A stretch of 64,000 nt of DNA from positions 2,624,001-2,688,000 of the forward strand of contig CBDCTJ010000007.1 in NCBI GenBank assembly GCA_965222115.1, read 5' to 3'. A program made the translations under genes and the position numbers. The notes below the pieces were generated by a model. That model worked only from the letters and a program-made list of their open reading frames with translations, was not told the DNA's origin and made no database searches. This stretch comes from Planctomycetota bacterium (lineage in GTDB: Bacteria; Planctomycetota; PLA2; JAEUHO01). Position 1 is the stretch's first letter, and every line of letters begins with the position of its first letter. This document shows, piece by piece, positions 6,968 to 63,671 of the stretch.

Positions 6968-8986
6968 GTGCGACAGGCCAAGCCTGGACAAGGAGGAACT
7001 CATGACGTGACGAAACCTTGTGATGGAGCCCAACGGGTAACCAATCCCGTCCGGCCAAGCTGACCGAGCAGCCGGAAGCAAACCTAGCGCGCTCTGTGGG
7101 TAACTGCGGGGTGTGAAGCACTAGGCAAGCGTGTGTGCGGGCTGTGTGATTGAGCCTCGAAATTCTTATGACTGCGGTGGCCGACGATGTTCTTTGATCG
7201 GAAGGCACCATCGGAGACGAGCGTGTAGGTCTGCTCCCTCCGGCCCGCCGGGGTCTATGAGCAGGGCACGTACACAAAGGGGCTTCCCCAGGAACCTGTG
7301 AGATCCCATGCTGTCCTTCGAGAACTCGGCGCGGAAGGGCCGTAGACACTTCCAGCAATACGCAGCACGAGGCACACGCTTGTGTTGGGTGCGAAACAAG
7401 CGTGTGAAACGAAGGTACGGCGTCGCGAAGTCACCCGAGCGGCGCTGGACGCAGGTGGGAAGTCGGAGCGCTCCGTAGTACCGATGAACGGGGGGAACCT
7501 TTCACCAAGGGACCCTCGGGAGGGATGGGAGCGCCGCTATGTGTACTCCGTAGGAGGGAACCATGACAGAGATCCCAAGCTTTGATCCCGTGTTACCGAA
7601 ACTCCGACGGATCGCAATGCTTGCGAAGCAATCCCCGGAGATGGCGTTCACGTCGTTGAACTCCGCTCTGGACATGACGTTACTGCGTGAAGCGCATCGG
7701 CGAACGCGCAAAGGAGGCGCAACGGGCATAGATCGCCAGACGGCGCAGGATTACGCGAAGGACCTGGAGAGCAATCTCCAGAGCCTGCTAAACCGTGCCA
7801 AGTCCGGCGACCGTTACCGCGCACCTCCTGTGCGACGTGTGCATATTCCCAAGGACAAGCCCGGGGAGACTCGGCCCCTGGGGATACCGACGTTTGAGGA
7901 CAAGATCCTCCAACGCGCGGTGGCCATGATTCTGGAATCCATCTACGAACAGGACTTTGACTCCTGCTCGTACGGTTTCCGGCCTGGCCGCTCGGCACAC
8001 GATCTGTTGGCTGCACTTCGTAACTCGATGATGAACATGAACGGCGGGTGGGTGCTTGAAGCCGATATCCGCAAGTTCTTCGACAGCGTCGATCACGCGC
8101 AGCTAATGGACGTGCTTCGCAAGCGGGTGCGAGATGGTGTGATTTTGCGATTGATTGGCAAGTGGCTAAATGCAGGTGTCATGGAGGATGGCCGCGTGAG
8201 CTATCCCAAAGGAACTGGTACGCCGCAAGGCGGAGTGATCTCCCCCGTGTTGGCCAACATCTTCCTCCATGAAGTGTTGGACACCTGGTGGAAAGAAGAT
8301 GTCGCCCCTCGCATGAAGGGGGAGGCGCATCTCTTTCGTTACGCAGATGACTTCGTGATTGTATTCGCTCGTGAAGCGGATGCACGGCGTGTGATGGACG
8401 TCGTTCCAAAGCGCTTCGACAAGTACGGCCTTGCCATCCACCCAGATAAGACTCGCTTGGTGCGATTCAAACGCCCGCGGCACTACGACTCCGATCATGA
8501 TTCGGAAACGTTCGACCTGTTGGGCTTTACGCATCTATGGAGTCGATCCCGTAAGGGATACTGGGTGATTCGGCAGTTGACCGCACGAAGTCGGTATCGC
8601 CGCGGTCTGACGCGGATGTCCAAGTGGCTCCGCTCCGTCCGCCACCAACCTGTGCATTGGCAGCGTACAAAACTGGCACAAAAACTCCAGGGGCATTACG
8701 CCTACTACGGGGTGACTGGCAATACGCGTCGGCTGCACAACTTCCGGCGGGAAGCCATACGGCTTTGGAGGTACTGGCTGTGCCGCCGTTCACAGCGCGC
8801 CAAGATGCCATGGGATCGTTTCAACCGACTCCTACAGCATCACCCCATTCCACCATCACGTGTCACGCGCTCGATCTATCGCGCCACCTAATCGGCGACC
8901 CACATAGCGAGGAGCCGGATGCGGTAATCCCGCACGTCCGGATCTGTAGGGGGGCTGGGGAGGGAAACCTCCCCGGCCTACCCGAC
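6968..8986 (+). mobile_element. Complete group II intron (endonuclease-less bacterial type)
   Basis: 5' end GTGCGAC at 6968. Domain V GAGCCGGATGCGGTAATCCCGCACGTCCGGATC and domain VI ending CCTACCCGAC at 8986. EBS1 TCTTTG (7191-7196, in a CGAT/ATCG stem-loop) is complementary to the last 6 nt of the 5' exon, CAAAGA (6962-6967). Confidence 0.9.
7563..8891 (+). CDS. ltrA: Group II intron reverse transcriptase/maturase
   Basis: Motifs RPLGIPTFEDKILQ, SYGFRPGRSAH, ADIRKFFD, GTPQGGVISPVLANIFLH and RYADD, then a maturase X domain. No C-terminal HNH domain. Confidence 0.95.
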   Translation: MTEIPSFDPVLPKLRRIAMLAKQSPEMAFTSLNSALDMTLLREAHRRTRKGGATGIDRQTAQDYAKDLESNLQSLLNRAKSGDRYRAPPVRRVHIPKDKPGETRPLGIPTFEDKILQRAVAMILESIYEQDFDSCSYGFRPGRSAHDLLAALRNSMMNMNGGWVLEADIRKFFDSVDHAQLMDVLRKRVRDGVILRLIGKWLNAGVMEDGRVSYPKGTGTPQGGVISPVLANIFLHEVLDTWWKEDVAPRMKGEAHLFRYADDFVIVFAREADARRVMDVVPKRFDKYGLAIHPDKTRLVRFKRPRHYDSDHDSETFDLLGFTHLWSRSRKGYWVIRQLTARSRYRRGLTRMSKWLRSVRHQPVHWQRTKLAQKLQGHYAYYGVTGNTRRLHNFRREAIRLWRYWLCRRSQRAKMPWDRFNRLLQHHPIPPSRVTRSIYRAT

Positions 8987-9754: not shown

Positions 9755-9933
9755 CGTTACCCGTTACCCGAATCCCGTCACCCGGACTCAAGTGTGATCG
9801 CTCAATGATCGATTCGCGCCGGTTCGTGGACGTGGACGTGGACGTGGACGTGGACGTGGACGTGGACGTGGACGTGGACGTGGACGTGGACGTGGACGTG
9901 GACGTGGACGTGGACGTGGACGTGGACGTGGAC
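9755..9933 (+). repeat. Repeat module: heptamer run + block X + (GTGGAC)18
   Basis: CCCGTTA CCCGAAT CCCGTCA, then CCCGGACTCAAGTGTGATCGCTCAATGATCGATTCGCGCCGGTTC, then 18 GTGGAC units (9826-9933). Confidence 0.95.
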
Positions 9934-9935
9934 GA

Positions 9936-10310
9936 TCAAGGCTCGTCGAACCTTCGTTGAAGCACGAACAACATAGCGGCGGATCGCTCTAGTATGTTCA
10001 TGACACCTGAGATTGCGGCCTCGCTGGAGAGTCCGAGTAGTAGAGCCTGATGTAGAGCGGCAATGGCCTCGGTGCGTTCGGCGTGTGCGATGTCGTACGC
10101 TTTGCGTTTCTCGGCTGGCCGTCGTTTCGAGAGTCCTTCGGCGACGTTTAGGGCAACGCTGACACTTGCGCGCCTGAGCTGATCTGCGAGCTTTGCGTGG
10201 CCCCGAGGCCATGCCGCGCAGGTTGCTACGCACTCGACTGCCGCGGCCTGCGAAGCACGGTAGACATCGAAGCGTTTGAGGTACTCGAGCGTGGAAGTCG
10301 CGCTTGTCAT
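9936..10310 (-). CDS. Four-helix bundle protein, subfamily A copy 1 (TIGR02436 / 23S rRNA IVS protein / Avd-like)
   Basis: 124 aa. Family signature FDVY...LADQLRRASVSVALNVAEG...YDIAHAE..E, with GGAG upstream of the ATG. Three close paralogs in the window. Confidence 0.88.
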   Translation of the reverse strand: MTSATSTLEYLKRFDVYRASQAAAVECVATCAAWPRGHAKLADQLRRASVSVALNVAEGLSKRRPAEKRKAYDIAHAERTEAIAALHQALLLGLSSEAAISGVMNILERSAAMLFVLQRRFDEP

Positions 10311-10467
10311 GATGGAACTCCGGCGTGAAAGGAGCGCAAGCCGTTTGCTCGCGTGTGCCCTTCGCAAAAGAGCCGAAGGCGAAGGAGGGCGCACGCGAGC
10401 GGACCGTACGAACAAGGTCCCGCGTGGACTCGGCAACCCGTTCCATGCTGGAGTTCCATCACAAGCG
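10301..10467. ncRNA. Conserved structured leader A (fold-back covering RBS and start codon), copy 1
   Basis: Outer arms 10301-10323 and 10448-10467. Inner 15-bp stem 10347-10361 / 10386-10400. Conserved in four copies. Whether it acts as RNA or ssDNA is not established. Confidence 0.6.
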
Positions 10468-10510
10468 GCGCCCGCGCGTACCGGTCGCGCATGAGTTACC
10501 GATGGCCTGC

Positions 10511-10740
10511 CCCGAATCCGTCACCCGTTACCCGAATCCCGTCACCCGGACTCAAGAGTGAGCGTCCGATAATCGATTCACGCAGGCTCGTGGACGTGGA
10601 CGTGGACGTGGACGTGGACGTGGACGTGGACGTGGACGTGGACGTGGACGTCAAGAGCAAATGGCCTTGCCATTTGCGCAAAGACCCTGAGTAAGCACCA
10701 GCGGATCTTTGATCCGCGCGGTGCGCATCGAAGGGTGGTC
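10511..10740 (+). repeat. Repeat module: heptamers + X + (GTGGAC)10 + hairpin block Y
   Basis: GTGGAC x10 at 10590-10649. Y = GAGCAAATGGCCTTGCCATTTGC..GACCCTGAGTAAGCACCAGCGGATCTTTGATCCGCGCGGTGCGCATCGAAGGGTGG. Confidence 0.95.
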
Positions 10741-10795
10741 GTCGTAGGCCAAGGGCGCGAATCGGTGCCAGGAGCGAACGTGTGGAAGGGGTGAG

Positions 10796-24126: not shown

Positions 24127-24228
24127 GTGGCCGTGGACGTCGAGAGCAAATGGCTTTGCCATTTGCACGAGACCCTGAGTAAGCGCCAGCGGATCTTTGA
24201 TCCGCGCAGTGCGCATCGAAGGGTGGAC
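24127..24228 (+). repeat. Solo block Y with GTGGAC ends
   Basis: GTGGCCGTGGACGTCGAGAGCAAATGGCTTTGCCATTTGC...GCGGATCTTTGATCCGC...CATCGAAGGGTGGAC. Confidence 0.9.
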
Positions 24229-24308
24229 GTTTAGGAACCGCTGACACCGTCGATTGAAAGAACCGTCGCGAAGGGAATGCGAGATTGGCGGATGGCGCTC
24301 GTCCGGAA

Positions 24309-30537: not shown

Positions 30538-30765
30538 CCCCGATACCCGATACCCGAATCCCGTCACCCGTTTCCCGTATCCCGTCACCCGGACTCATAA
30601 GTGGACATCCGATGATCGTTCGCGCCGTTCGTGGACGTGGACGTGGACGTGGACGTGGACGTGGACATGGACGTGGACGTGGACGTGGACGCGGACGTGG
30701 AGAGCAAATGGCCTTGCCATTTGCGCGAAGACCCTGAGTAAGCACCAGCGGATCGAAGGGTGGAC
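30538..30765 (+). repeat. Solo repeat module (no cargo gene): heptamers + X + (GTGGAC)11 + internally deleted Y
   Basis: Eight heptamer units. Eleven hexamers at 30631-30696, including ATGGAC and GCGGAC variants. Y lacks TCTGATCCGCGCAGTGCGCATC. Confidence 0.92.
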
Positions 30766-41736: not shown

Positions 41737-43224
41737 ATGGTTGATCTCTCACCCATCTCCCCGGCCATTGTGCTCACCATCGGCTTGCTGGCGGTGATCA
41801 TTGCCGATCTCGTTACGCGCGGCAAGCGCCCCACGATACCGATCGCGATAGCCATTATTTCGCTGGCCGTGAGCGTGGTGCTTGCTTGGACGCTCAAGGA
41901 CCAAGACAAGACCGTGCTCGGTGTCTTGCGCGCCGATCGATTCGGCAATGTGTTTACGCTTATCTGTTGCATTACCGGATTGATTACGGTCATTGCCACC
42001 ACCCGCGGTGAAGCGTTCCGTACACCGGGCGGTGAGTATCTCACCTTGATCCTGGCCGCAGTCATCGGTATGTCGCTGCTATCGATGTCGGTGGATCTGC
42101 TCACGCTTTATTTGGCGTTTGAAACCGTTTCGATTCCCAGCTACGTCCTGGTGGGCATGCGCCGGGCCGACGTGCGTGCCAACGAAGCGAGTCTCAAGTA
42201 TGTACTTTTTGGGGCCGTGTCATCGGGCGTGATGCTCTATGGCCTGTCCATGTTTGTGGGACTCGCCGGAACCACAACGCTCGACGGGCTGTCCGTAGCC
42301 ATCCAAAACGGCGCGGCTTCGCAACCCATCTTCTGGGTGGCGAGCTTGATGGTGTTGGCTGGATTCGCGTTCAAGATCTCAGCCGTACCGTTTCACTTTT
42401 GGGCACCGGATGTTTACGGGGGCGCCCCGGCAGCCGTTGGCGGCTTTTTGGCCGTTGCAAGTAAGGCGGCGGGCTTTGCGGCGCTCGTTCGCGTCGTGGC
42501 GGCAACCTTACCCAATGTGCTTCCAGCGGAAAACCCCATCACGGCGTTCTTGCCGGATGGCAATTTCCTCATGAAAGCCATCGCGGTTTGCGCAATTCTC
42601 ACAATGACGTTTGGCAACTTGGCAGCGCTCAAGCAGCGTGAAATCAAGCGACTCTTGGCGTGGTCGAGCATTGCCCACGCGGGCTACATCTTGCTGGCGA
42701 TATCCGTGTGGGGCAAAGACGCGATTGCGGGCCTTGTGCTCTATCTCGTCGCCTACTTGTTGATGAATCTCGCGGCGTTTTTCGTGGCGGGTATCGCCAT
42801 TCGGGAAACGGGGACCGGCAAAATTTCGGCGTTCCGTGGCCTCGCCAAGCGCAATGTGTGGCTCGCCGCCTCACTCACGCTCTGCCTGTTTAGCCTCACG
42901 GGACTGCCGCCCTTCTTTGGTTTCATCGGCAAGTTGCAGATCTTTACGGCCATCTTTGAAAAGGGCTACGCGTGGCTCGGCGTCATCGGCCTCGTCAATG
43001 GCGTCATTTCGCTTTACTACTATGCCAAAGTTGCCATGGCCATGTGGCCGTTCGATAGCGATGAGACGTCGCCCCAGCACGCGCCCATACGCCTGTCCTT
43101 GGTTGATGGCGTGTTGTGTGCCGTATTGGCGCTGCCGTTGCTTGGCTTCTTTGTGTGGTGGGGGCCCCTCTGGGAGTGGGCGCAGACCGTCGTGCCCACC
43201 CTCGCGGGAGGGATGCCGTCATGA
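41737..43224 (+). CDS. nuoN: NADH-quinone oxidoreductase subunit N
   Basis: EASLKY, FKISAVPFHFWAPDVY, KRLLAWSSIAHAGY. Confidence 0.96.
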   Translation: MVDLSPISPAIVLTIGLLAVIIADLVTRGKRPTIPIAIAIISLAVSVVLAWTLKDQDKTVLGVLRADRFGNVFTLICCITGLITVIATTRGEAFRTPGGEYLTLILAAVIGMSLLSMSVDLLTLYLAFETVSIPSYVLVGMRRADVRANEASLKYVLFGAVSSGVMLYGLSMFVGLAGTTTLDGLSVAIQNGAASQPIFWVASLMVLAGFAFKISAVPFHFWAPDVYGGAPAAVGGFLAVASKAAGFAALVRVVAATLPNVLPAENPITAFLPDGNFLMKAIAVCAILTMTFGNLAALKQREIKRLLAWSSIAHAGYILLAISVWGKDAIAGLVLYLVAYLLMNLAAFFVAGIAIRETGTGKISAFRGLAKRNVWLAASLTLCLFSLTGLPPFFGFIGKLQIFTAIFEKGYAWLGVIGLVNGVISLYYYAKVAMAMWPFDSDETSPQHAPIRLSLVDGVLCAVLALPLLGFFVWWGPLWEWAQTVVPTLAGGMPS

Positions 43225-44495
43225 CCGACACGCTACCTGGACTCTCGCCCGAATTGCGGCGTCGCCTCAACACCCTCTTCTCGCGTTCGTATTACAGCGC
43301 GGCGGGGTACGTATTCGAGTCGCAACCCTATCTCGTTGATACCGACCTCCCGGTCATGAACCGTCTTGCCGACGTGCGCGAGGATGATCGCCAACATGCA
43401 CTGTTGCTTGCCGGCCTCACCGAAATGTACGACCTCGTGCCTGAACCTGGCGCGTTTCCCTATTGGCACCGTGATCTCAATTACCTGACGGCTCCCTATA
43501 TGGCGGGCTTCGTAGTCGAGTCACTGGAAGACGATATTGCGCTCTACAAGGAAACGATTAGCGCGTTTCCGGAGGAAATGCGCGTTGCCCACACGGCTCT
43601 GCGTACGATTCTTCGAGAGAAGGAGACGACGCTCGGCGAGTTGCGAGCCGTCGCTGCCAATGCGAAAGCGCGCGAAGCAGAGACGTATGCGGAGAAGATC
43701 GTTGCCGTCAAGAAGGCGCGCGCCGATCGGTTGGCGGCGGAAAAAGCCGCCAAAGCTGCCGCGCGCAAGAAGAAGTCTGCCAAACCTGTCAAGGTCACCC
43801 TCGACTACGATCCCACGGAAGGCATGCCCGATCCTCACGAAGCGGGCATTTCCATGGAAGAGAATGCGCGACGAAAGATTGCGCGCCTGAAAGCTGTCAA
43901 AGAAGCCATGGCGAAGGCAGCCGCTGGTGTCGGCGCAGCATCCAGCGGACCGGTGTATGTGGATCTCAGCAAGTATCCCGATCCCGCCGAACCGGGCATC
44001 TCCATGGAGGAGAACGCCAAGCGCAAGATCGCGCGCTTGAAGGCACTCAAAGATGCGGGGCCCGGCGCCATTGCAGGGAAACCGCCTGCCGGTGTGACCG
44101 CGGCTGCAGGCGGCGACGACAACTTCGGTCTGCCCGATCCCAATGAAAAGGGCATCAGTCCTAAGGAACGAGCCAAGCGCACCATGATGATCAAACGTGC
44201 GCGCAAAAAGGCCGAAGCGGAAGGCGGAGCCGCCTCACCCACAAGCGATCCGGCCGCAGGCATGCCCGACCCCAACGAGCCTGGCATCTCGTCGAAAGAG
44301 AAAGCCAAGCGCACCATGATGATCAAACGTGCGCAAAAGAAGGCCGAAGCAGCAGGTGGTGCGGGCGCCGCCGCACCTGCGAGTGATCCCGCCGCCGGAA
44401 TGCCGGATCCCGATGAACCGGGTATCTCGCCGAAGGAGAAGGCGAAGCGCACGATGATGATTAAGCGGGCACGGAAGAAGGCGGAAGAGGGGTAG
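43221..44495 (+). CDS. Hypothetical protein: ferritin-like helical N-terminus plus five PDPxEPGISxxExAKR repeats
   Basis: Overlaps the nuoN stop (ATGA). EDDRQH within a helical domain. Five C-terminal repeats are visible. Confidence 0.7.
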   Translation: MTDTLPGLSPELRRRLNTLFSRSYYSAAGYVFESQPYLVDTDLPVMNRLADVREDDRQHALLLAGLTEMYDLVPEPGAFPYWHRDLNYLTAPYMAGFVVESLEDDIALYKETISAFPEEMRVAHTALRTILREKETTLGELRAVAANAKAREAETYAEKIVAVKKARADRLAAEKAAKAAARKKKSAKPVKVTLDYDPTEGMPDPHEAGISMEENARRKIARLKAVKEAMAKAAAGVGAASSGPVYVDLSKYPDPAEPGISMEENAKRKIARLKALKDAGPGAIAGKPPAGVTAAAGGDDNFGLPDPNEKGISPKERAKRTMMIKRARKKAEAEGGAASPTSDPAAGMPDPNEPGISSKEKAKRTMMIKRAQKKAEAAGGAGAAAPASDPAAGMPDPDEPGISPKEKAKRTMMIKRARKKAEEG

Positions 44496-44542
44496 GGGAT
44501 TCGATCATGGGCTCATGCGCGGCGACGCCATTCGCTCGTTTC

Positions 44543-44716
44543 CCCGTCACCCGAAACCCGAACTCAAGTGTGAGCGTCCGGTGATCGATTCGCGCCAGTT
44601 CGTGGACGTCAAGAGCAAATGGCTTTGCCATTTGCGCGAAGACCGTGAGTAAGCACCAGCAGATCTCTGATCCGCGCAGTGCGCATCGATCGGTGGACGT
44701 GGACGTACAAGTGGAC
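44543..44716 (+). repeat. Repeat module: heptamers + X + (GTGGAC)1 + Y + trailing GTGGAC units
   Basis: CCCGAACTCAAGTGTGAGCGTCCGGTGATCGATTCGCGCCAGTTC GTGGAC GTCAAGAGCAAATGGCTTTGCCATTTGC...GTGGACGTGGACGTACAAGTGGAC. Confidence 0.92.
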
Positions 44717-44736
44717 AAAAGCGTGTATCGGAGAAG

Positions 44737-44782
44737 GACCCCAACGGGGTCACGTGTAATAGCCTGGGGTTTTAACCCCAGG
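44737..44782. repeat. REP/REPIN-like double hairpin
   Basis: GACCCC-AAC-GGGGTC and CCTGGGGTT-TT-AACCCCAGG. Confidence 0.55.
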
Positions 44783-44881
44783 TATAGTCGTCTCTTCTCT
44801 TTAGCGTTCTGTAGGGACGCCGCCCGACTGCATGCAAGTCCGAGTGAGCTCCTGCGATTTCTAATCTGCGCAGAACGCACC

Positions 44882-45036
44882 GAACTGCTTGCTGTATGAC
44901 TTGAAAGTGCACGGGGCAACACCCTTTGGGAAGTGCTACGTGCATGCCCCACTCGCCACGAGGGCGAGGGCACGCACTCGCATTCCCGCGGGTGTTTCCT
45001 CGTGGAGCTTCTCGTATGTCATACAGCAAACAGTTC
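44882..45036. ncRNA. Conserved structured leader B, copy 1
   Basis: GAACTGCTTGCTGTATGAC (44882-44900) pairs 18/19 with GTCATACAGCAAACAGTTC (45018-45036). Nested stems AACACCC/GGGTGTT, GTGCATGCCC/GGGCACGCAC and CTCGCC/GGCGAG. Confidence 0.6.
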
Positions 45037-45402
45037 TCGGTTACTTCCACGGCGGGTCGGCTTGAACGATTCGATGTGTATCGAATCGCACGTCGTGTCG
45101 CGGCCAGTATTCACCAGCTCTGTGGATCGCTGCCTCGAGGCAACGCCGAGCTTGCAAGCCAAGCTCGACGAGCCTCTACAGCCGTCGTCCTCAACATCGC
45201 GGAGGGTATCGGCCGCGCTGGCGCGGGCGCCAAACACCGCTCGTTCTCAATTGCTCGCGGTGAGTGCGTCGAGGCCGCCGCGGCACTCGACCTCATGCAG
45301 GCGATGGGCATTATCACAGGAGCCAGCGCCGCACCGACGCTTCATGATCTAGATCGCGTCCGCGCGATGCTGAATGCGCTGATCCGCCGCTGGCGGGAGT
45401 GA
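45016..45402 (+). CDS. Four-helix bundle protein, subfamily B copy 1
   Basis: 128 aa. FDVY...LASQARRASTAVVLNIAEG...FSIARGECVE, with GGAG 8 nt upstream. Confidence 0.88.
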   Translation: MSYSKQFSVTSTAGRLERFDVYRIARRVAASIHQLCGSLPRGNAELASQARRASTAVVLNIAEGIGRAGAGAKHRSFSIARGECVEAAAALDLMQAMGIITGASAAPTLHDLDRVRAMLNALIRRWRE

Positions 45403-45475
45403 GGCACGCCCATTCGCAGCGAACCTCGCAAAAAGTGCCGGGTGTAATTTTGCACCGGTTAGCGCACTCCCGCCA

Positions 45476-45844
45476 CCCGTCACCCGTTCCCCGAAACCCG
45501 TCACCCGGACTCAAGTGTGAGCGTCCGATAATCGATTCGTGTCGCGTTCAAAACGTGGACGTGGACGTGGACGTGGACGTGGACGTGGACGTGGACGTGG
45601 ACGTGGACGTGGACGTGGACGTGGACGTGGACGTGGACGTGGACGTGGACGTGGACGTGGACGTGGACGTGGACGTGGACGTGGACGTGGACGTGGACGT
45701 GGACGTGGACGTGGACGTGGACGTGGACGTGGACGTGGACGTGGACGTGGACGTCGAGAGCAGATGGGCGAAGCCCGTTTGCACGAGACCCTGAGCAAGC
45801 ACCAGAGGATCTGTGATCCGCGCGGTGCGCATCGAAGGGTGGAC
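45476..45844 (+). repeat. Repeat module: heptamers + X + (GTGGAC)33 + Y
   Basis: 33 units at 45555-45752. Y hairpin variant GCAGATGGGC-GAA-GCCCGTTTGC. Confidence 0.95.
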
Positions 45845-45858
45845 GCCCTCGATGCCTA

Positions 45859-46551
45859 TCACGCACGGCGTGGCGGGCCGTCGAGGATGTCGGCGTGTGG
45901 CGCGTCTCTTATTGTCTTTCGTTCCGCTCCGCGTTCGCGGAGATGAAGAGTCAGGTCGACTACGATCTTCGCGATGACGAGAACAGCCAGGATGCCGATG
46001 GTGCTGTTGAAGAGCAAGACAACAAAGTTACCTAAAATAATGGCGAACTGCATGATAAAGATTCGCGTGTACGCCGCGGCCATGGGATCGAAGGATGCGT
46101 CCGCTGCCTGGACAACGTTCTTCTTAAAGTTCAAGGCATACGAAATGCCGTGGCTAACAAACATCGCGCCTATCACCAGAAGCCAGTGCGGTTCCAGTCT
46201 ACCAAGTGTATCGATCGTGTAGTTGAAGAACGAGTGGGACTTGGGTCGCGAAATCAGGATGCTGTTTGACCATGAAGGTCTCGTCAGTATCCACAGGAAC
46301 AATGCGTGTCCCACCATAAACCCACCGAAGTGCAGCGTGAAGAAGGACACGTCAAAGAACGCATTCCTTTTCCTCTTGAGTGAGAACAACTTCAGAATGG
46401 AGTAGAATCCGATGACGGCAGATTCGGCCCAGTATAGATAGAGCACCATGGCGAGGTCCCACCCCCCTGCCAGCACGCCGTAGAGTGGAATCAAGTTGAC
46501 GGCAATCAGTGTGAAGATTGCGAGTGGATGGGAGCGTGCAAATTGCGTCAT
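45859..46551 (-). CDS. Multi-pass membrane protein (DUF6498-like)
   Basis: LIAVNLIPLYGVLAGGWD..LYLYWAES..., FFTLHFGGFMVGH, YTRIFIMQ, KIVVDL..H. Confidence 0.7.
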   Translation of the reverse strand: MTQFARSHPLAIFTLIAVNLIPLYGVLAGGWDLAMVLYLYWAESAVIGFYSILKLFSLKRKRNAFFDVSFFTLHFGGFMVGHALFLWILTRPSWSNSILISRPKSHSFFNYTIDTLGRLEPHWLLVIGAMFVSHGISYALNFKKNVVQAADASFDPMAAAYTRIFIMQFAIILGNFVVLLFNSTIGILAVLVIAKIVVDLTLHLRERGAERKTIRDAPHADILDGPPRRA

Positions 46552-46713
46552 GATCGCGAGACTCCTGAATCGGGAATGCATGTCAAGCGCAGTTCGAGTA
46601 TCGGGGGCATCGCATGGCGCAAAATTTCAGTTTCAGCATCCGAGGCGAATTTCTAGCCCCCTGCGGTGCGCTTCGGAAGGGACTCCGGTACGTGATTCGG
46701 TAAGCTCTCGACC

Positions 46714-47709
46714 ATGGCCAGCAGTTTCGGAAGCGTGTTCTGTTCGACGTATGCCCTCGCTACATTCGAGAGCGGGGGCTGGAGTCCATGGACGCTTGCG
46801 CCTGTGGCACCCATCTCGATTCATCCGGGGGCGCACGGGCTGCACTACGGAAGCAGTTGTTTCGAAGGGCTCAAGGCGTATCGCCGCGACGACGGACGAG
46901 TACACATCTTTCGCCTTGACCGGCATGTTGAACGCATGCAGGCGAGCGCAGAGGCTTTGCGGCTGCCCGTTCCCGATGCCTCGCAATTTCACGACATGAT
47001 CTATGCGTTGGTTGATCGGTGCCGCGATGAGGTTCCGGTCTATCCAGGCGCCCTCTACATTCGACCGATTCTCTTTGGCACGTTGGAGTCGGTTGGCGCG
47101 GCCGGATCCGCGAGCGACGAAGCGCAACTCGTTGTTTTGGTGTGTCCCGTGGGAGACTACTTTGAGGGCGGTATGCGACCGCTTCGTATAGCCACTGTCA
47201 CCGATCGTGCACGCGCCGCACCTGGATTCGGTTGCGTAAAGACGGGTTCGAACTATGCCGCGGCGCTGCGCCCTGTCCTCACCGCGAAGCGAGACCATGA
47301 CGCCGATCAAGTGTTGTTTTGTCCAGATGGCAACGTTCAGGAGACAGGCGCCGCCAACTTCATCGTGATTCACAACAAGACGGTGATTACCAAACCACTG
47401 GACGACACGATCTTGCACGGCGTCACCCGCGACTCCCTGCTGACGATTGCACCTTCACTTGGCTTCAATGTAGAAGAACGCGAGTTCTCCGTGGATGAGC
47501 TACTTACGTGGGCGCCGAACGCAGAAGCAGGTTTGTCCGGTACCGCGGCCGTACTTGCGCCGGTTGGCGTGCTCATTCACGAGGGCAAAGAGCACGTGGT
47601 GGGTGATGGGAGCATTGGTCCGAACGTCAGAAAGCTGCGTGAAGCATTGACCGCGATTCAATCCGGCGATGCCGAAGATGAGTACGGGTGGTTGCTGTCC
47701 GTGACGTAA
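46714..47709 (+). CDS. ilvE: Branched-chain amino acid aminotransferase
   Basis: LHYGSSCFEGLKAY, LYIRP, KTGSNY, ETGAANF, ILHGVTRDS, GTAAV. Confidence 0.92.
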   Translation: MASSFGSVFCSTYALATFESGGWSPWTLAPVAPISIHPGAHGLHYGSSCFEGLKAYRRDDGRVHIFRLDRHVERMQASAEALRLPVPDASQFHDMIYALVDRCRDEVPVYPGALYIRPILFGTLESVGAAGSASDEAQLVVLVCPVGDYFEGGMRPLRIATVTDRARAAPGFGCVKTGSNYAAALRPVLTAKRDHDADQVLFCPDGNVQETGAANFIVIHNKTVITKPLDDTILHGVTRDSLLTIAPSLGFNVEEREFSVDELLTWAPNAEAGLSGTAAVLAPVGVLIHEGKEHVVGDGSIGPNVRKLREALTAIQSGDAEDEYGWLLSVT

Positions 47710-47752
47710 CGCATGCATGTGCTACTCGACATATGTCCCGCGCTCATCGTTT

Positions 47753-47833
47753 CCCTTTTCCCGTTTCCCGTCACCCGGAATCCAGATTTGTGCCGGGTGC
47801 ATTTTCGCGCGCGGTGTGCATCGAAGGGTAGAC
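47753..47833 (+). repeat. Degenerate repeat module (heptamers + tail of Y)
   Basis: CCCTTTT CCCGTTT CCCGTCA CCCGGAA ... CGCGCGGTGTGCATCGAAGGGTAGAC. Confidence 0.75.
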
Positions 47834-47835
47834 GC

Positions 47836-48210
47836 TCATGGAACGTTGAATCGCCGCTGGAGGACGAACAACATCGCGGCGGTTCGCTCCAGCGTGTTCA
47901 TGACTCGCGAAACTTTGAGTTCACTCGAGAGACGGAGTAGGAGCGCGTGATGTAGAGCCGCGATGGCTTCGGTGCATTCGGCGTGTGCAATGTCGTAGGC
48001 CCTGCGCTTCTCGGCTGCCCGCCGTTTCGATAGGCCTTCGGCGACGTTTAGGGCAACGCTGGTGCTTGCGCGCCTGAGTTGATCGGCAAGTTTTGCGTTG
48101 CCTCGTGGCCACTCGGCGCAGATGGCGACGCACTCGACTGCCGCGGCCTGCGAAGCACGGTAGACGTCGAAGCGTTTGAGGTACTCGAGCGTTGAAGACG
48201 CGCTTGTCAT
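47836..48210 (-). CDS. Four-helix bundle protein, subfamily A copy 2
   Basis: 124-aa close paralog of 9936-10310. Confidence 0.88.
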   Translation of the reverse strand: MTSASSTLEYLKRFDVYRASQAAAVECVAICAEWPRGNAKLADQLRRASTSVALNVAEGLSKRRAAEKRRAYDIAHAECTEAIAALHHALLLRLSSELKVSRVMNTLERTAAMLFVLQRRFNVP

Positions 48211-48366
48211 GATGGAACTCCAGTTGAAGGGAACGCAAGCCGTTTGCTCGCGTGTGCCCTTCGCAAAAGAGCCGAAGGCGAAGGAGGGCACACGCGAGCG
48301 GGTCGTACAAACAGAGCCCGCGTGACAGCGACAACTCGTTCCCAAACTGGAGTTCCATCACAAGCG
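48201..48366. ncRNA. Conserved structured leader A, copy 2
   Basis: CGCTTGTCATGATGGAACTCCAGTT / AACTGGAGTTCCATCACAAGCG. Perfect inner stem GCTCGCGTGTGCCCT/AGGGCACACGCGAGC. Confidence 0.6.
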
Positions 48367-48417
48367 GCGCCTGCGCGTACCGAACGCGCTATGGCAACCG
48401 GCGGTGCTGTCCAAGGC

Positions 48418-48651
48418 CCAGTCACCCTTCACCCGTTACCCGTTACCCGTAAACCGAATCCCAGACTCAAGGGTGAGCGTCGGATGGACGATTCGCGCCG
48501 TCTTTACGTGGACGTGGACGTGGACGTGGACGTGGACGTGGACGTGGACGTGGACGTGGACGTGGACGTGGACGTGGACGTGGACGTGGACGTGGACGTG
48601 GACGTGGACGTGGACGTGGACGTGGACGTGGACGTGGACGTGGACGTGGAC
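48418..48651 (+). repeat. Repeat module: heptamers + X + (GTGGAC)24
   Basis: 24 units at 48508-48651, no Y block. Confidence 0.93.
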
Positions 48652-48673
48652 GTGGAATCAGATTGGGTGCATC

Positions 48674-49474
48674 TTAGTCGTCGTCTTTCTTGGGTACGTC
48701 TTTCTCAATCCACGACGTAATCATGTACCGCACTTCGACCCATGAAAGCGTGATTGTGTACTCGCGCGTTAGATGCTCATAGGTTACGAGGTACTTTGCT
48801 TGTAGGGAGTCGTTTTCACCGGGCCCAAACGATGTGCGCATGAGATTCTTGAACGCGCCTTGTTTTCCATCGACGAGATCGATCTTGGTTGGCAGTGACT
48901 CACGCTCAATCATATCGCCCGATACGAACTTCGAGATGGTTTGAGGATTGCCTTGCGCGACCTGCTCAACGGCGCCGCGCATGGCGTCCTGTTCGAGCAG
49001 TTTCCGCTGTTCATCGCGGGCAGTGATTACGTGCTCAGCCTGTGCGGCGCGAGGGGTTAACGTGTAACGTGCGATTAGCCAGCGGCCGCCTGTGGCTGGA
49101 TTTCGCCTAAGATGAAACGTGGAATCAAGGATGACGTGTTCGCAACTCAGCGTAGCAAGTACCGTCTTTCGCGCCTTGCCTCCTGTTTCCGACACCTCCT
49201 CGATTCGAATGTCGTTTACCGCTCTCACGTTTCCGAATTGGGCTTGATACTGTTTCCGCTGTTCGCCGAATGCATGGGGGTGCCAATACACAAGAAGGGG
49301 CTTAGCGACATGTGGAAGTGTTTCGATGGAGTCATGCACCGCGTTGGACAACAGCGCCTTTGCGAATTCGGTAACGATGACCTCATGGGCGTCCTTCGTG
49401 GTTAGCGAGCTGATGGCGGCGAATAGCACACACGCCAACAACGTAAGCCCAAGCGCCTTGAATACGGGACCCAC
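48674..49474 (-). CDS. Hypothetical exported protein
   Basis: 266-aa ORF with N-terminal signal/TM segment, starting 11 nt downstream of the dehydrogenase gene. Confidence 0.6.
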   Translation of the reverse strand: MGPVFKALGLTLLACVLFAAISSLTTKDAHEVIVTEFAKALLSNAVHDSIETLPHVAKPLLVYWHPHAFGEQRKQYQAQFGNVRAVNDIRIEEVSETGGKARKTVLATLSCEHVILDSTFHLRRNPATGGRWLIARYTLTPRAAQAEHVITARDEQRKLLEQDAMRGAVEQVAQGNPQTISKFVSGDMIERESLPTKIDLVDGKQGAFKNLMRTSFGPGENDSLQAKYLVTYEHLTREYTITLSWVEVRYMITSWIEKDVPKKDDD

Positions 49475-52524: not shown

Positions 52525-52594
52525 GTGGCGGGAAGGAAGTAGATCCTGCGAAACAGGCCGGATGGAGTCTGAAGGATTCGTGCGTATTTCCTTA

Positions 52595-52764
52595 CCGTTA
52601 CCCGAAACCCGAAACCCGGGCTCAAGTGTGAGCGCTCAATGATCGATTCACGCCGGGTCGTCGAGAGTGAATGGCTTTGCCATTTGCACGAAGACCCTGA
52701 GTAAGCACCAGCGGATCTCTGATCCGCGCAGTGCGCATCAAAGGGTGCGCATCGAAGGGTGGAC
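52595..52764 (+). repeat. Repeat module: heptamers + X + Y with zero internal GTGGAC units
   Basis: ...GATCGATTCACGCCGGGTC is joined directly to GTCGAGAGTGAATGGCTTTGCCATTTGC. 14-nt duplication GTGCGCATC(A/G)AAGG. Ends in GTGGAC. Confidence 0.9.
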
Positions 52765-52810: not shown

Positions 52811-52965
52811 GAACTGTTTGCTGTGTGACGTGAACGCGCACTGGGCAACACCCTTTGAGAAGTGCTACGTGCATGCCCCATTCGCCATGAGGGCGAGGGC
52901 ACGCACTCGCATTCCCGCGGGTGTTTCCTCGTGGAGTTTCTCGTATGTCACACAGCAAACAGTTC
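52811..52965. ncRNA. Conserved structured leader B, copy 2
   Basis: GAACTGTTTGCTGTGTGAC (52811-52829) is the exact reverse complement of GTCACACAGCAAACAGTTC (52947-52965). Confidence 0.62.
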
Positions 52966-53331
52966 TCGATTACTTCCACGGCAGGTCGGCTTGAACGTTT
53001 CGACGTGTATCGAATCGCACGCCGTGCCGCGGCCAGCATTCACCAGCTTTGTGGATCCCTGCCGCGAGGCAACGCCGAGCTTGCAAGCCAAGCTCGACGA
53101 GCCTCTACAGCCGTCGTCCTCAACATCGCCGAGGGCATCGGGCGCGCTGGCGCAGGCGCCAAGCACCGTTCGTTCTCCATCGCTCGCGGCGAGTGCGTCG
53201 AGGCCACCGCGGCACTCGACCTCATGCACGCGATGGGAATCCTTACAGGCGCCCACGCCGCGCCAACGCTTCGCGACCTTGACCGCGTTCGCGCAATGTT
53301 GAACGCGCTCATCCGGCGCTGGAGGGAATGA
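52945..53331 (+). CDS. Four-helix bundle protein, subfamily B copy 2
   Basis: 128-aa close paralog of 45016-45402. Confidence 0.88.
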   Translation: MSHSKQFSITSTAGRLERFDVYRIARRAAASIHQLCGSLPRGNAELASQARRASTAVVLNIAEGIGRAGAGAKHRSFSIARGECVEATAALDLMHAMGILTGAHAAPTLRDLDRVRAMLNALIRRWRE

Positions 53332-53339
53332 GGGGGTGT

Positions 53340-53572
53340 CCCGTTACCCGAGACCCGTTACCCGGACTCAAGTGTGAGCCTCTGATGATCGATTCGCGCC
53401 GTTCGTGGACGTGGACGTGGACGTGGACGTGGACGTGGACGTGGACGTGGACGTGGACGTGGACGTGGACGTGGACGTGGACGTGGACGTGGACGTGGAC
53501 GTGGACGTGGACGAAACCCTGAGTAAGCACCAACGGATCTCTGATCCGCGCGGTGCGCACCGAACGGTGGAC
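53340..53572 (+). repeat. Repeat module: heptamers + X + (GTGGAC)18 + Y lacking first hairpin
   Basis: 18 units at 53405-53512, then GAAACCCTGAGTAAGCACC...GGTGGAC. Confidence 0.93.
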
Positions 53573-53578
53573 ATGATG

Positions 53579-56467: not shown

Positions 56468-56842
56468 TCAGGGACCGCCGAATTTGTGTTGAAGCACGAA
56501 CAACATGGCGGCGGCGCGTTCTAGGGTGTTCATCGCCTGCGACGTTGCGCGCTCGCTTGCGATTCCAAGCAGCTGGGCGTGATGCAGCGCAGCGATCGCT
56601 TCGGTGCACTCGGCGTGGGCGATGTCGTATGCCTTGCGCTTCTCGGCGGGGCGGCGCTTCGCCAGCCCCTCTGCGACGTTGAGTGCAACGCTGGTACTAG
56701 CGCGCCGGAGTTGATCGGCGAGTTTTGCGTGGCCTCGAGGCCATGTTGCGCAGAGCGCGACGCACTCGACTGCTGCTGCCTGCGAAGCACGGTAGACATC
56801 GAAGCGTTTGAGGTAATGGAGCGTGGAAGACGCGCTTGTCAT
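56468..56842 (-). CDS. Four-helix bundle protein, subfamily A copy 3
   Basis: 124-aa close paralog of 9936-10310. Confidence 0.88.
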   Translation of the reverse strand: MTSASSTLHYLKRFDVYRASQAAAVECVALCATWPRGHAKLADQLRRASTSVALNVAEGLAKRRPAEKRKAYDIAHAECTEAIAALHHAQLLGIASERATSQAMNTLERAAAMLFVLQHKFGGP

Positions 56843-57000
56843 GATGGAACTCCAGCGTGAAGGGAACGCAAGCCGTTTGCTCGCGTGTGCCCTTCACAAA
56901 AGAGCCGAAGGCGAAGGAGGGCACACGCGAGCGGGTCGTACAAAAAGTCCCCTCGTGACAGCGACAACTCGTTCTCAAGCTGGAGTTCCATCACAAGCGC
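56832..57000. ncRNA. Conserved structured leader A, copy 3
   Basis: GCGCTTGTCATGATGGAACTCCAGC / GCTGGAGTTCCATCACAAGCGC. Confidence 0.6.
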
Positions 57001-57041
57001 AGCCCGCGCGTAACGGTCGCGCATGCCTTGCCCGCGGCCCG

Positions 57042-57345
57042 CCCGGAATCCGTCACCCGTATCCCGTCATCCGGACTCAAATGTGGACATCCGATGATCG
57101 ATTCACGCCGGTTCGTGGACGTGGACGTGGAGAGCAGATGGGCGAAGCCCATTTGCGCGAAGACCCTGAGTAAGCACCAGCGGATCTCTGATCCGCGCAG
57201 TGCGCATCGAAGGGTGGACGCAAATTGGTGCCGGGCGCGAACGTGCGTGCCCCGCGACCCGTTCCCCCGTACCCCGAGCCCCGATTCCCGTCACCCATCA
57301 CTCGTTACCCGACACCCGGTCGCCAGTGTGAGCGTTCAATGAACG
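57042..57345 (+). repeat. Repeat module: heptamers + X + (GTGGAC)2 + Y, followed by a second degenerate heptamer + X block
   Basis: GTGGAC x2 at 57115-57126. Y ends at 57219. Second heptamer run from 57251. Confidence 0.9.
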
Positions 57346-62760: not shown

Positions 62761-63135
62761 TCACGGTTCGTCGAATCGGCGCTGAAGTACGAACAACATG
62801 GCGGCGGATCGCTCCAAGCTGTTCATGACGAGTGAGATTGCGGCTTCGCTGGCGAGACCAAGCAATAGCGCGTGGTGTAGAGCGGCAATGGCCTCGGTGC
62901 ATTCGGCGTGTGCGATGTCGTAGGCCCTGCGCTTTTCGGCTGGCCGCCGTTTCGATAGGCCTTCAGCGACGTTTAGCGCAACGCTGGTACTTGCGCGCCT
63001 GAGTTGATCGGCGAGCTTTGCGTGGCCGCGAGGCCATGCGGCGCAGATTGCGACGCACTCGATCGCCGCGGCTTGCGAAGTACGGTAGACATCGAAGCGT
63101 TTGAGGTACTCGAGCGTAGAAGAGGCGCTTGTCAT
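62761..63135 (-). CDS. Four-helix bundle protein, subfamily A copy 4
   Basis: 124-aa close paralog of 9936-10310. Confidence 0.88.
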   Translation of the reverse strand: MTSASSTLEYLKRFDVYRTSQAAAIECVAICAAWPRGHAKLADQLRRASTSVALNVAEGLSKRRPAEKRRAYDIAHAECTEAIAALHHALLLGLASEAAISLVMNSLERSAAMLFVLQRRFDEP

Positions 63136-63291
63136 GATGGAACTCCAGATGAAGGGAACGCAAGCAGTTTGCTCGCGTGTGCCCTTCGCAAAAAAGCCGA
63201 AGGCGAAGGAGGGCACACGCGAGCGGGTCGTACAAAAAGAACCCGCGTGAAAACGACAACTCGTTCCCAAGCTGGAGTTCCATCACAAGCG
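63126..63291. ncRNA. Conserved structured leader A, copy 4
   Basis: CGCTTGTCATGATGGAACTCCAG / CTGGAGTTCCATCACAAGCG plus the inner 15-bp stem. Confidence 0.6.
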
Positions 63292-63342
63292 GCGCCCGCG
63301 CGTACCGTTTGCGCTGGAGCTACCGGCGGTGCTGTCCAAAGT

Positions 63343-63671
63343 CCCGTCACCCGTTACCCGTCACCCGTTACCCGTCACCCGTTCCCCGTGACCCGTACTC
63401 AAGGGCGGGCATCCGATGAACGATTTGCGCCGTCTTAACGTGGACGTGGACGTGGACGTGGACGTGGACGTGGACGTGGACGTGGACGTGGACGTGGACG
63501 TGGACGTGGACGTGGACGTGGACGTGGACGTGGACGTGGACGTGGACGTGGACGTGGACGTGGACGTGGACGTGGACGTGGACGTGGACGTGGACGTGCG
63601 ATCTGCAATACCCGTTACCCGAACCCCGTCACCCGCTACCCGGGCTCAAGTGTGAGGCTCCGATGATCGAT
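63343..63671 (+). repeat. Repeat module: heptamers + X + (GTGGAC)26, then a second heptamer + X block
   Basis: 26 units at 63440-63595. Second block 63611-63671. Confidence 0.93.

Follow-up and report, generated by a model that had tools for sequence, protein, structure and literature searches.

Why does the translation start of a small gene lie inside a long imperfect palindrome, and is it the fold or the sequence of that palindrome that selection maintains? The question is raised by a 64,000-nt stretch of a planctomycete chromosome (positions 2,624,001-2,688,000 of contig 7; hereafter the window), in which several genes of the PF05635 family are preceded by such structures. PF05635 was first found within the intervening sequences (IVSs) of 23S rRNA genes; its members are widespread, often present in many copies, and are also known as relatives of Avd, and we know of no function assigned to them. 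The host genome (4.55 Mb in 7 contigs) contains 18 PF05635 genes of two types, B (8 genes) and A (10 genes). They are all found on contig 7 between 2.27 and 2.85 Mb (~570 kb), amid housekeeping genes. The window itself is ordinary chromosome, with the nuo operon and homologues of hisS, purA, carA, ybeY and phoH, and the small PF05635 genes occupy its intergenic spacers. Four A genes, all on the minus strand, and two B genes, denoted B1 and B4, are located in the window (Table 1). The neighborhood of B1 comprises an unnamed ORF (43116-44495) beside the nuo operon, a DUF6498 gene, a ceramidase-like gene and a Lon-domain gene. The B1 and B4 proteins score 70.2 and 69.0 bits with PF05635 (cut-off 33.8; residues 18-121) and 72.6 and 70.3 bits with TIGR02436, four helix bundle protein (cut-off 24). 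Because the PF05635 domain begins at residue 18, the codons embedded in the palindrome encode a tail outside the domain. A search with the PADLOC anti-phage defence profiles assigned the B and A proteins to no family.

Table 1. Leaders, genes and repeats in the window (window coordinates)
Feature	Position	Strand	Remarks
Leader B rod, copy 1 (B1)	44882..45036	+	63 consensus pairs, 6 helices; dG -93.1 kcal/mol, z -8.31
Outer 5' arm of rod B1	44882..44900	+	pairs with 45018-45036
Apex hairpin of rod B1	44953..44967	+	5-bp stem, 5-nt loop; stem pairs invariant in 8/8 copies
GGAG Shine-Dalgarno-like motif	45004..45007	+	in the 3' arm, 8 nt before the ATG
B1 gene	45016..45402	+	128 aa, PF05635 / TIGR02436 four-helix-bundle protein
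Repeat unit U after B1	45455..45845	+	~34 (GTGGAC) copies, then the 72-nt core
Repeat unit U before B4	52586..52760	+	without hexamer array; same orientation as the unit after B4
Leader B rod, copy 2 (B4)	52811..52965	+	dG -85.4 kcal/mol, z -6.86
B4 gene	52945..53331	+	128 aa, PF05635
Repeat unit U after B4	53331..53573	+	
Leader A rod (A9)	~48189..48376	-	-121 kcal/mol, z -7.3; gene ATG 48210-48208
A9 gene	47836..48210	-	124 aa, PF05635
A10 gene with leader A rod	9936..10485	-	ATG 10310
A6 gene with leader A rod	56468..57017	-	ATG 56842
A2 gene with leader A rod	62761..63310	-	ATG 63135
(GTGGAC)n arrays, 10-34 copies	9825-9934, 10589-10651, 30630-30701, 45553-45754, 48506-48656, 53404-53513, 63438-63598	+	six score 100% matches; 30630-30701 93%
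72-nt motif of short perfect hairpins, 7 copies	10670-10741, 24158-24229, 44628-44699, 45774-45845, 52680-52751, 53502-53573, 57149-57220		75-94% identity

Both leader B copies of the window fold as a single unbranched, imperfect rod of ~155 nt, the stability of which was reached by none of 200 dinucleotide shuffles in either case. The initial annotation had described a 19-nt upstream arm paired with the first seven codons of the gene, and nested stems that extend it to a long rod, and the coordinates and folding confirm both descriptions. The partner of the B1 arm (45018-45036) consists of the G of the ATG (45016-45018) and codons 2-7, with one C.A mismatch (44888/45030); the arms of B4 (52811-52829 and 52947-52965) match perfectly (19/19). 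Weaker pairs lengthen the B1 structure to 44879-45041. The basal helix of the consensus derived from all eight B copies has 24 pairs and includes the ATG (pairs 53/169, 52/170 and 51/171), so that the AUG is paired and loosened solely in the two copies with U.U at 52/170. A bulged AUG as a common property of all rod types was accordingly rejected: it is true for A and for the foreign type I described below, but not for the B consensus. The arrangement of a Shine-Dalgarno (SD) motif followed by the ATG within the 3' arm is common to all eight B copies. No terminator-like site was found in 44500-45900, and rod B1 runs into coding sequence, so it is not an intrinsic terminator; promoter prediction at leader B yielded none, the scan being uninformative for this phylum. 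In E-value scans with Rfam 15 (44400-48800 and five foreign loci), the rods matched only sub-threshold microRNA-hairpin entries.

The rod is strictly linked to the gene. Every B gene is accompanied by a B rod (8 of each) and every A gene by an A rod (10 of each); the only further piece is one partial A fragment, and this distribution led us to reject a free-standing palindrome of the REP or MITE kind. The solitary leader A fragment (contig 7, 2,443,845-2,443,954; 88% identity over the first 109 nt) is the only piece of a rod found away from a PF05635 gene.

The eight paralogues provide a neutral yardstick, their synonymous sites, against which a non-coding hairpin can be measured. All eight B genes are intact, and a dN of 0.044 compared with a dS of 0.576 (dN/dS 0.077) indicates that the copies are old and that the protein is under selection. 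The mean pairwise identity rises from 53% in the upstream flank to 91.9% over the 5' arm, 96.6% over the 3' arm as far as the ATG and 96.3% in codons 1-7, and falls to 85.8% in the remaining coding sequence (CDS) and 63% downstream of the stop codon. Within the rod, 17 of the 126 paired columns vary versus 13 of the 40 unpaired ones (Fisher p 0.0096), and third codon positions are nearly frozen in the arm, with variation at 1 of 6 in codons 2-7 versus 87 of 121 in codons 8-128 (p 0.010). The pairs of the apical helices 5 and 6 never vary (14/14, including 5/5 in helix 6), and every one of the eight copies shows an identical set of internal loops and bulges. The leader B rod is clearly under strong purifying selection, and this selection acts on the sequence as well as on the pairing. 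The divergence of the rod (0.03-0.08) is comparable with dN, and a hairpin as constrained as the replacement sites of the protein is to be regarded as a functional part of the unit and not as a by-product. Thus, the initial annotation was right that the leader is selected, as its arms are 92-97% identical although dS is 0.58, and the accumulation of arm mismatches at the background rate in additional B copies, which it had named as the counter-evidence, is not seen across the eight. Its formula that structure, not sequence, is under selection does not hold within the subfamily, where the sequence itself is strongly conserved. Furthermore, the rate of change in the 5' arm exceeds that in the 3' arm by a factor of about 2.4, and the sequence of the 3' arm, rather than pairing, may hence account for some of the constraint.

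The argument for selected structure had been built on a double change in codon 3, an A-T pair in copy 1 and a G-C pair in copy 2, with TAC (Tyr) replaced by CAC (His) and the pairing kept. The exchange is real (pair 47/175); since the G-C/His state occurs in seven of the eight copies, the A-U/Tyr state, found in B1 alone, is the derived one. Over the eight leaders, 97.4% of the 503 cells in the 63 consensus pairs are paired and 13 are unpaired, and two-sided changes affect only two pairs, 47/175 and 38/183. The latter is A-U in three copies, U-A in two and mismatched in three (A.A in B2 and B6, C.A in one copy), and it swaps codon 5 between Lys and Asn, so that both compensatory pairs alter tail residues outside the Pfam domain. 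Three further pairs show one-sided, wobble-compatible changes, and single changes yield A.C more often than G.U (8 vs 3 cells). Two double-change pairs were reached by 61 of 500 shuffles (mean 1.0), and the covariation score of 0.027 (shuffle mean 0.019) by 15 of 500. Covariation within B is weak and not significant, and the exchange between copies 1 and 2 carries little weight alone. Better evidence for selection on pairing is comparative, drawn from A, B and their relatives in other genera.

The scarcity and lack of significance of the double changes are what would be expected if the palindrome had no function and were kept by templated correction or gene conversion between copies, with the double change as a by-product; template switching can produce two-sided changes in one step. 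We consider this extremely improbable. Gene conversion would homogenize the adjoining CDS too, yet dS is 0.58; templated correction would remove bulges, and identical imperfections last in all eight copies; the covarying pair 38/183 is also seen in mismatched intermediate states (A.A, C.A); and the design is retained with unrelated arms in A, B and other genera.

Leader A had been said to close over the start in the same manner, and a rod was indeed found there, on the minus strand. The A9 ATG is placed in a 3-nt bulge between two helices. Identity among A leaders is 89% versus 84% in the A CDS, and the alignment of 8 of the 10 copies contains 3 double changes among 63 pairs. The accompanying statement that leaders A and B share no obvious sequence survives in the covariance models, where the model of the B rods (R2) scores 12-13 bits with A leaders (E 1.7-3.2, not significant); by eye, a short common apex motif can be seen, and to that extent the statement fails.

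To extend the comparison, relatives of the proteins were collected from 40 genomes of the order at E <= 1e-5. They are present in 14 of the 40, often in multiple copies (19, 12, 6 and 5), and the best foreign proteins in the order are ~44% identical. At the DNA level, no relatives of leader B were detected in 28 other genomes of the family, and a metagenome scan for B relatives returned one locus, without upstream DNA. Altogether, 66 PF05635 ORFs were located on the host contig and in foreign loci of the order, 59 of them with a usable start after removal of 3 near contig ends and 4 without a start candidate. A criterion that required 25 or more pairs in an unbranched rod around the ATG gave poor separation (25/59 PF05635 genes vs 33/300 controls) and missed the branched A rods, and was therefore replaced by the folding z-score of the region from -170 to +45 around the start relative to shuffles. 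By this measure, z <= -4 is reached by 18/18 PF05635 genes of the host, 12/41 foreign ones of the order and 0/60 control genes of the host genome, and z <= -3 by 18/18, 16/41 and 2/60, respectively.

The foreign rods are of several types. In type I (genome G031), the partner of the upstream arm is the ATG-proximal stretch of codons 2-5, and the AUG is located in a bulge. In types II and III, a CCUCC-type anti-SD sequence pairs with a GGAGG motif, and in some of them the helix continues over the ATG; the type II rod stops before the ATG, and type IV (genome G008) ends just before the SD motif. The GGAG motif is found 6-9 nt before the ATG and, in most rod types, is paired with a CUCC-type anti-SD sequence. 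The foreign rods have a common conserved apex of 15 pairs, 5 of which covary; the sequence of this apex is conserved across genera while the outer arms change. The covariance model of the foreign rods (R1) matches the B apex with 8 bits (E ~3, not significant) and has no genome-wide match in the host genome at E <= 0.001. Genome G031 has ~21 rod sites, most directly upstream of a gene among its 19 protein matches and about four without a listed gene beside them. Such irregular leaders are located at L021 (plus-strand gene), at L057 and on contigs C29, C39 and C68 of this genome: in two type I leaders the apex has been lost while the outer arms still cover the start codon, and three genes have two rods in tandem upstream. 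Divergent pairs of two subfamilies, types I and II, are also found there, at loci L021 and L053.

As the initial annotation had supposed, the arms of a subfamily are matched to the start region of that subfamily. The duplex of a start region with its own leader has an energy of -44.6 kcal/mol for A, -43.8 for B and -36.8 for type I, compared with -17 to -33 kcal/mol for leaders of other types, and for 25 of 39 genes no leader of a different type forms as stable a duplex as the gene's own. In the protein tree, rod types A, B, III and IV are each monophyletic, and A and B are sister clades (support 100/98), which implies that their unlike arms diverged while the pairing was kept. On the simplest reading, the common ancestor of A and B would already have had a rod, the arms of which have since diverged past recognition, still fitting their own first codons.

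Avd binds nucleic acid. The rod could be the RNA or single-stranded nucleic acid partner of the encoded protein, itself an Avd-like toroid, either in autoregulation or in a stable ribonucleoprotein, with a rod of its own for each subfamily, an idea that goes back to the initial annotation. Such a role would be in line with a rod conserved as strongly as the amino acid replacement sites, with the apex as the most invariant part of leader B and its foreign counterpart persisting across genera while the outer arms change, and with the monophyly of rod types on the protein tree, although co-inheritance in cis accounts for the match between rod type and protein clade. PMC10053308 likens PF05635 to Avd, which serves diversity-generating retroelements as an accessory protein, and describes a homologous four-helix-bundle fold. 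Unlike Avd loci, however, these genes have no reverse transcriptase and no template or variable repeats beside them, the sole reverse transcriptase among the 44 window ORFs being that of a group II intron 35 kb away. Taken together, a binding partnership appears distinctly unlikely as the explanation of the rod. Even less probable, in our estimate, is its bolder form, in which rod and protein constitute a self-encoded ribonucleoprotein module: the Avd-like toroid of each paralogue would recognize the double-stranded leader of its own message, the divergent A/B pairs would be two-component systems, and rods released by RNase III would be the working parts. If true, this would account for a rod conservation that equals that of the protein's replacement sites, and the rods might be, for example, sensors or guides in a selfish or defence-like element.

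The reading that we favor, to which we assign about an even chance, is that leader B is a 5'-UTR RNA lock over the ribosome-binding site and the start codon, opened by processing, and a variant of the PF05635 hairpin cassettes. It builds on what is directly observed: the stable structure, the purifying selection, the frozen synonymous sites of the arm, the subfamily-specific arms, the strict association of rod and gene and the fixation of SD and ATG in the 3' arm. Leader B would be transcribed with the gene as a 5' untranslated leader, with the 5' arm included in the mRNA. The RNA is predicted to form a rod of ~155 nt, in which the upstream arm is joined to the AUG and codons 2-7 in the basal 24-bp helix and GGAG is held in the 3' arm. 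This rod would shut the translation start region, so that the gene would be off by default, and would be opened either by processing of the double-stranded RNA or by unwinding. RNase III, the gene for which is present in the host genome (106 bits), would be the obvious candidate for the opening, by analogy with IVS stems. The rod may represent a lineage-specific rearrangement of the hairpin of other PF05635 cassettes, the stem of 23S rRNA IVSs among them, placed wholly 5' of the ORF instead of around it.

Several observations count against an RNA lock. The antisense strand folds as well as the sense strand or slightly better (strand difference: B +3.0, A +4.9, type III +10.1 kcal/mol; controls -0.9 +/- 9.8), so there is no G.U signature of the sense strand. 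To this should be added the excess of A.C over G.U, the faster change of the 5' arm, the weak covariation and the modest occlusion of the start: the predicted pairing probability from SD to AUG is 0.73 in the host PF05635 genes, 0.62 in controls and 0.56 in foreign genes, a modest separation. Furthermore, the foreign rods of types II and IV stop before the ATG or the SD motif.

The strand comparison is also compatible with a functional antisense strand, the transcript of which would either adopt the rod fold or anneal to the start region of the mRNA, in the manner of antisense control of toxin mRNAs, and might arise, for instance, by read-through from a divergent partner gene. The antisense is as stable as the sense or more stable in 5 of 7 rod groups, the foreign-rod model also matches the reverse strand at about half the score, and 4 of the 8 B genes are arranged head-to-head with an A gene across one shared repeat unit. 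The strand differences lie, however, within the spread of the controls (sd 9.8 kcal/mol), the rod model scores the sense strand far higher (~80 vs 40 bits), and neither B1 nor B4 has a divergent partner gene nearby, all of which makes an antisense function very improbable.

Leader B has its closest counterparts among other PF05635 loci. 23S rRNA IVSs with an ORF, such as those of Coxiella burnetii (helix 45), Leptospira, Xanthomonas and Brucella, encode a PF05635 protein as well. According to PMC4990558, the Coxiella IVS has a 28-bp terminal stem that is cut by RNase III, an S23p ORF in the loop and heptamer repeats, variable in number, before the ATG. As far as this account goes, leader B resembles the IVS in its long complementary stem tied to the gene and in the short tandem repeats near the start codon, and the RNase III processing of IVS stems makes it an RNase III candidate by analogy; unlike the Coxiella ORF, reported as decaying, the B genes are intact and constrained. 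The differences are that leader B is located outside rRNA genes, among housekeeping genes, and that its rod is wholly 5' of the ORF, overlapping just the first 7 codons, with a stem that does not enclose the ORF. Complementarity between the region upstream of the rod and that after the stop codon (duplex z <= -4) was found in 0 of the 18 host genes. With no rRNA in the window at the Rfam gathering threshold, where parts of a group II intron were the only matches, and no ORF-enclosing inverted repeats, membership of the 23S rRNA IVSs was rejected.

In a sample of 151 genomes of the phylum, 84 of which contain PF05635, 8 of 24 genes from the loci retrieved show complementarity between the upstream 75 nt and the region after the stop codon (duplex z <= -4), and none of 25 has a 5' region that reaches z <= -4 by itself. 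The host and its order show the reverse: enclosing arms in 0/18 and 0/39 genes, and a 5' rod in 18/18 and 12/41, respectively. It follows from this opposite pattern that the 5' rod is a lineage-specific variant of a wider design. The hairpin-armed cassettes of the phylum sample share with leader B the short-period repeat arrays beside the gene, a start codon at or in a helix, an intergenic or operon-riding site and a patchy multi-copy spread; they differ in that their arms surround the whole ORF and their arrays are inverted, whereas the arrays that flank the B genes are direct. We regard the rod as a new variation on the combination of hairpin and PF05635 gene that is familiar from rRNA intervening sequences, and the openly accessible literature that was searched contained no account of such leaders.

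A repeat unit, denoted U, borders each PF05635 gene of the host. It combines an array of (CCCGNNN)n heptamers, a conserved core, perfect (GTGGAC) repeats (0 to ~34 copies) and, often, a 72-nt multi-hairpin core. The U units that flank the B genes are direct, not inverted. Each (GTGGAC)n array of the window is preceded by a heptamer array and a conserved core of ~30 nt. Genome-wide, (GTGGAC) arrays of at least 3 units are found at 24 sites on contig 7 (2.275-2.94 Mb) and at 2 sites on contig 3, and their length varies between loci from 0 to ~34 units, as if by slippage. The 72-nt motif usually closes the repeat unit; the copy at 24158 has no PF05635 gene nearby. When DNA contigs from four runs of one study were mapped to the cassettes, few joints were found (depth 2-4, single contigs), indistinguishable from those at other repeat-unit loci, the mapped contigs being short and the paralogues mapping onto each other.

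These surroundings bear on whether the palindrome acts as DNA, as a hairpin or cruciform at the 5' edge of the cassette that would serve in copying, recombination or insertion into the U repeats, the ribosome-binding site being within it merely through the compactness of the cassette. The similarity between copies begins exactly at the base of the rod and stops at the stop codon, although selection on rod and CDS alone would, in copies as old as these (dS 0.58), leave sharp borders too. The two strands are equal in folding stability, G.U pairs being few, the 18 genes and nearly all U repeats are confined to 0.57-0.7 Mb of one contig, PF05635 is patchy and multi-copy in the phylum (up to 29 matches per genome), and tandem duplicated and apex-deleted rods are found in G031. 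On the other hand, a DNA site would not require SD and ATG to keep a constant place in the 3' arm when the arm sequences themselves are unrelated; the same internal loops and bulges are retained in all eight copies; the flanking repeats are direct and not inverted; and the 44 window ORFs scanned include no recombinase, transposase or integrase family. A role as a DNA site is, in our judgment, unlikely. Integron attC sites, imperfect hairpins that close promoterless cassettes on the 3' side, were considered and rejected: the leader B hairpin precedes the ORF and covers its start, and no integrase family is present among those 44 ORFs.

If the rod is an RNA lock, it also has parallels among regulatory leaders. 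The phage lambda N gene and Escherichia coli adhE have structured leaders in which the ribosome-binding site is occluded until RNase III or another processing step opens them, and hok-type toxins are encoded by fold-back mRNAs. In these as in leader B, an upstream segment forms a long-range helix with the region of the translation start, and processing of leader B would likewise precede translation. The leader B rod differs from them in being far longer and more stable (~63 pairs, -85 to -93 kcal/mol), in being predicted from sequence and in being repeated together with a whole gene family. With its naturally occurring compensatory and mismatched variants, a 155-nt leader followed by 8 codons provides a small and clean test system that could probe what PF05635 cassettes do and how they relate to the rRNA IVS design.

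Several additional features of the window were noted. The 459-aa frame directly upstream of the B1 unit (43116-44495) has no Pfam match and ends in a 138-nt tandem repeat of 2.4 copies (44171-44496); a GC-rich hairpin within it (43162-43223), ending at an ATG, gives a weak match to the foreign-rod model (13 bits, E 0.097). On the minus strand between the repeat core and rod B1, a hairpin at 44737-44782 matches Rfam Acido-Lenti-1 with 25 bits (E 0.011), below the gathering score of 37 and probably by chance. The group II intron occupies 7041-8986 (RF02005, 113 bits, 7041-7263; RF00029, 42.5 bits, 8910-8986) and contains the reverse transcriptase ORF at 7563-8891. Positions 2-6775 hold an open-ended frame of >2257 aa with many SdrD_B, CarboxypepD_reg and SpaA-type Ig-like repeats, by its appearance a giant surface protein.
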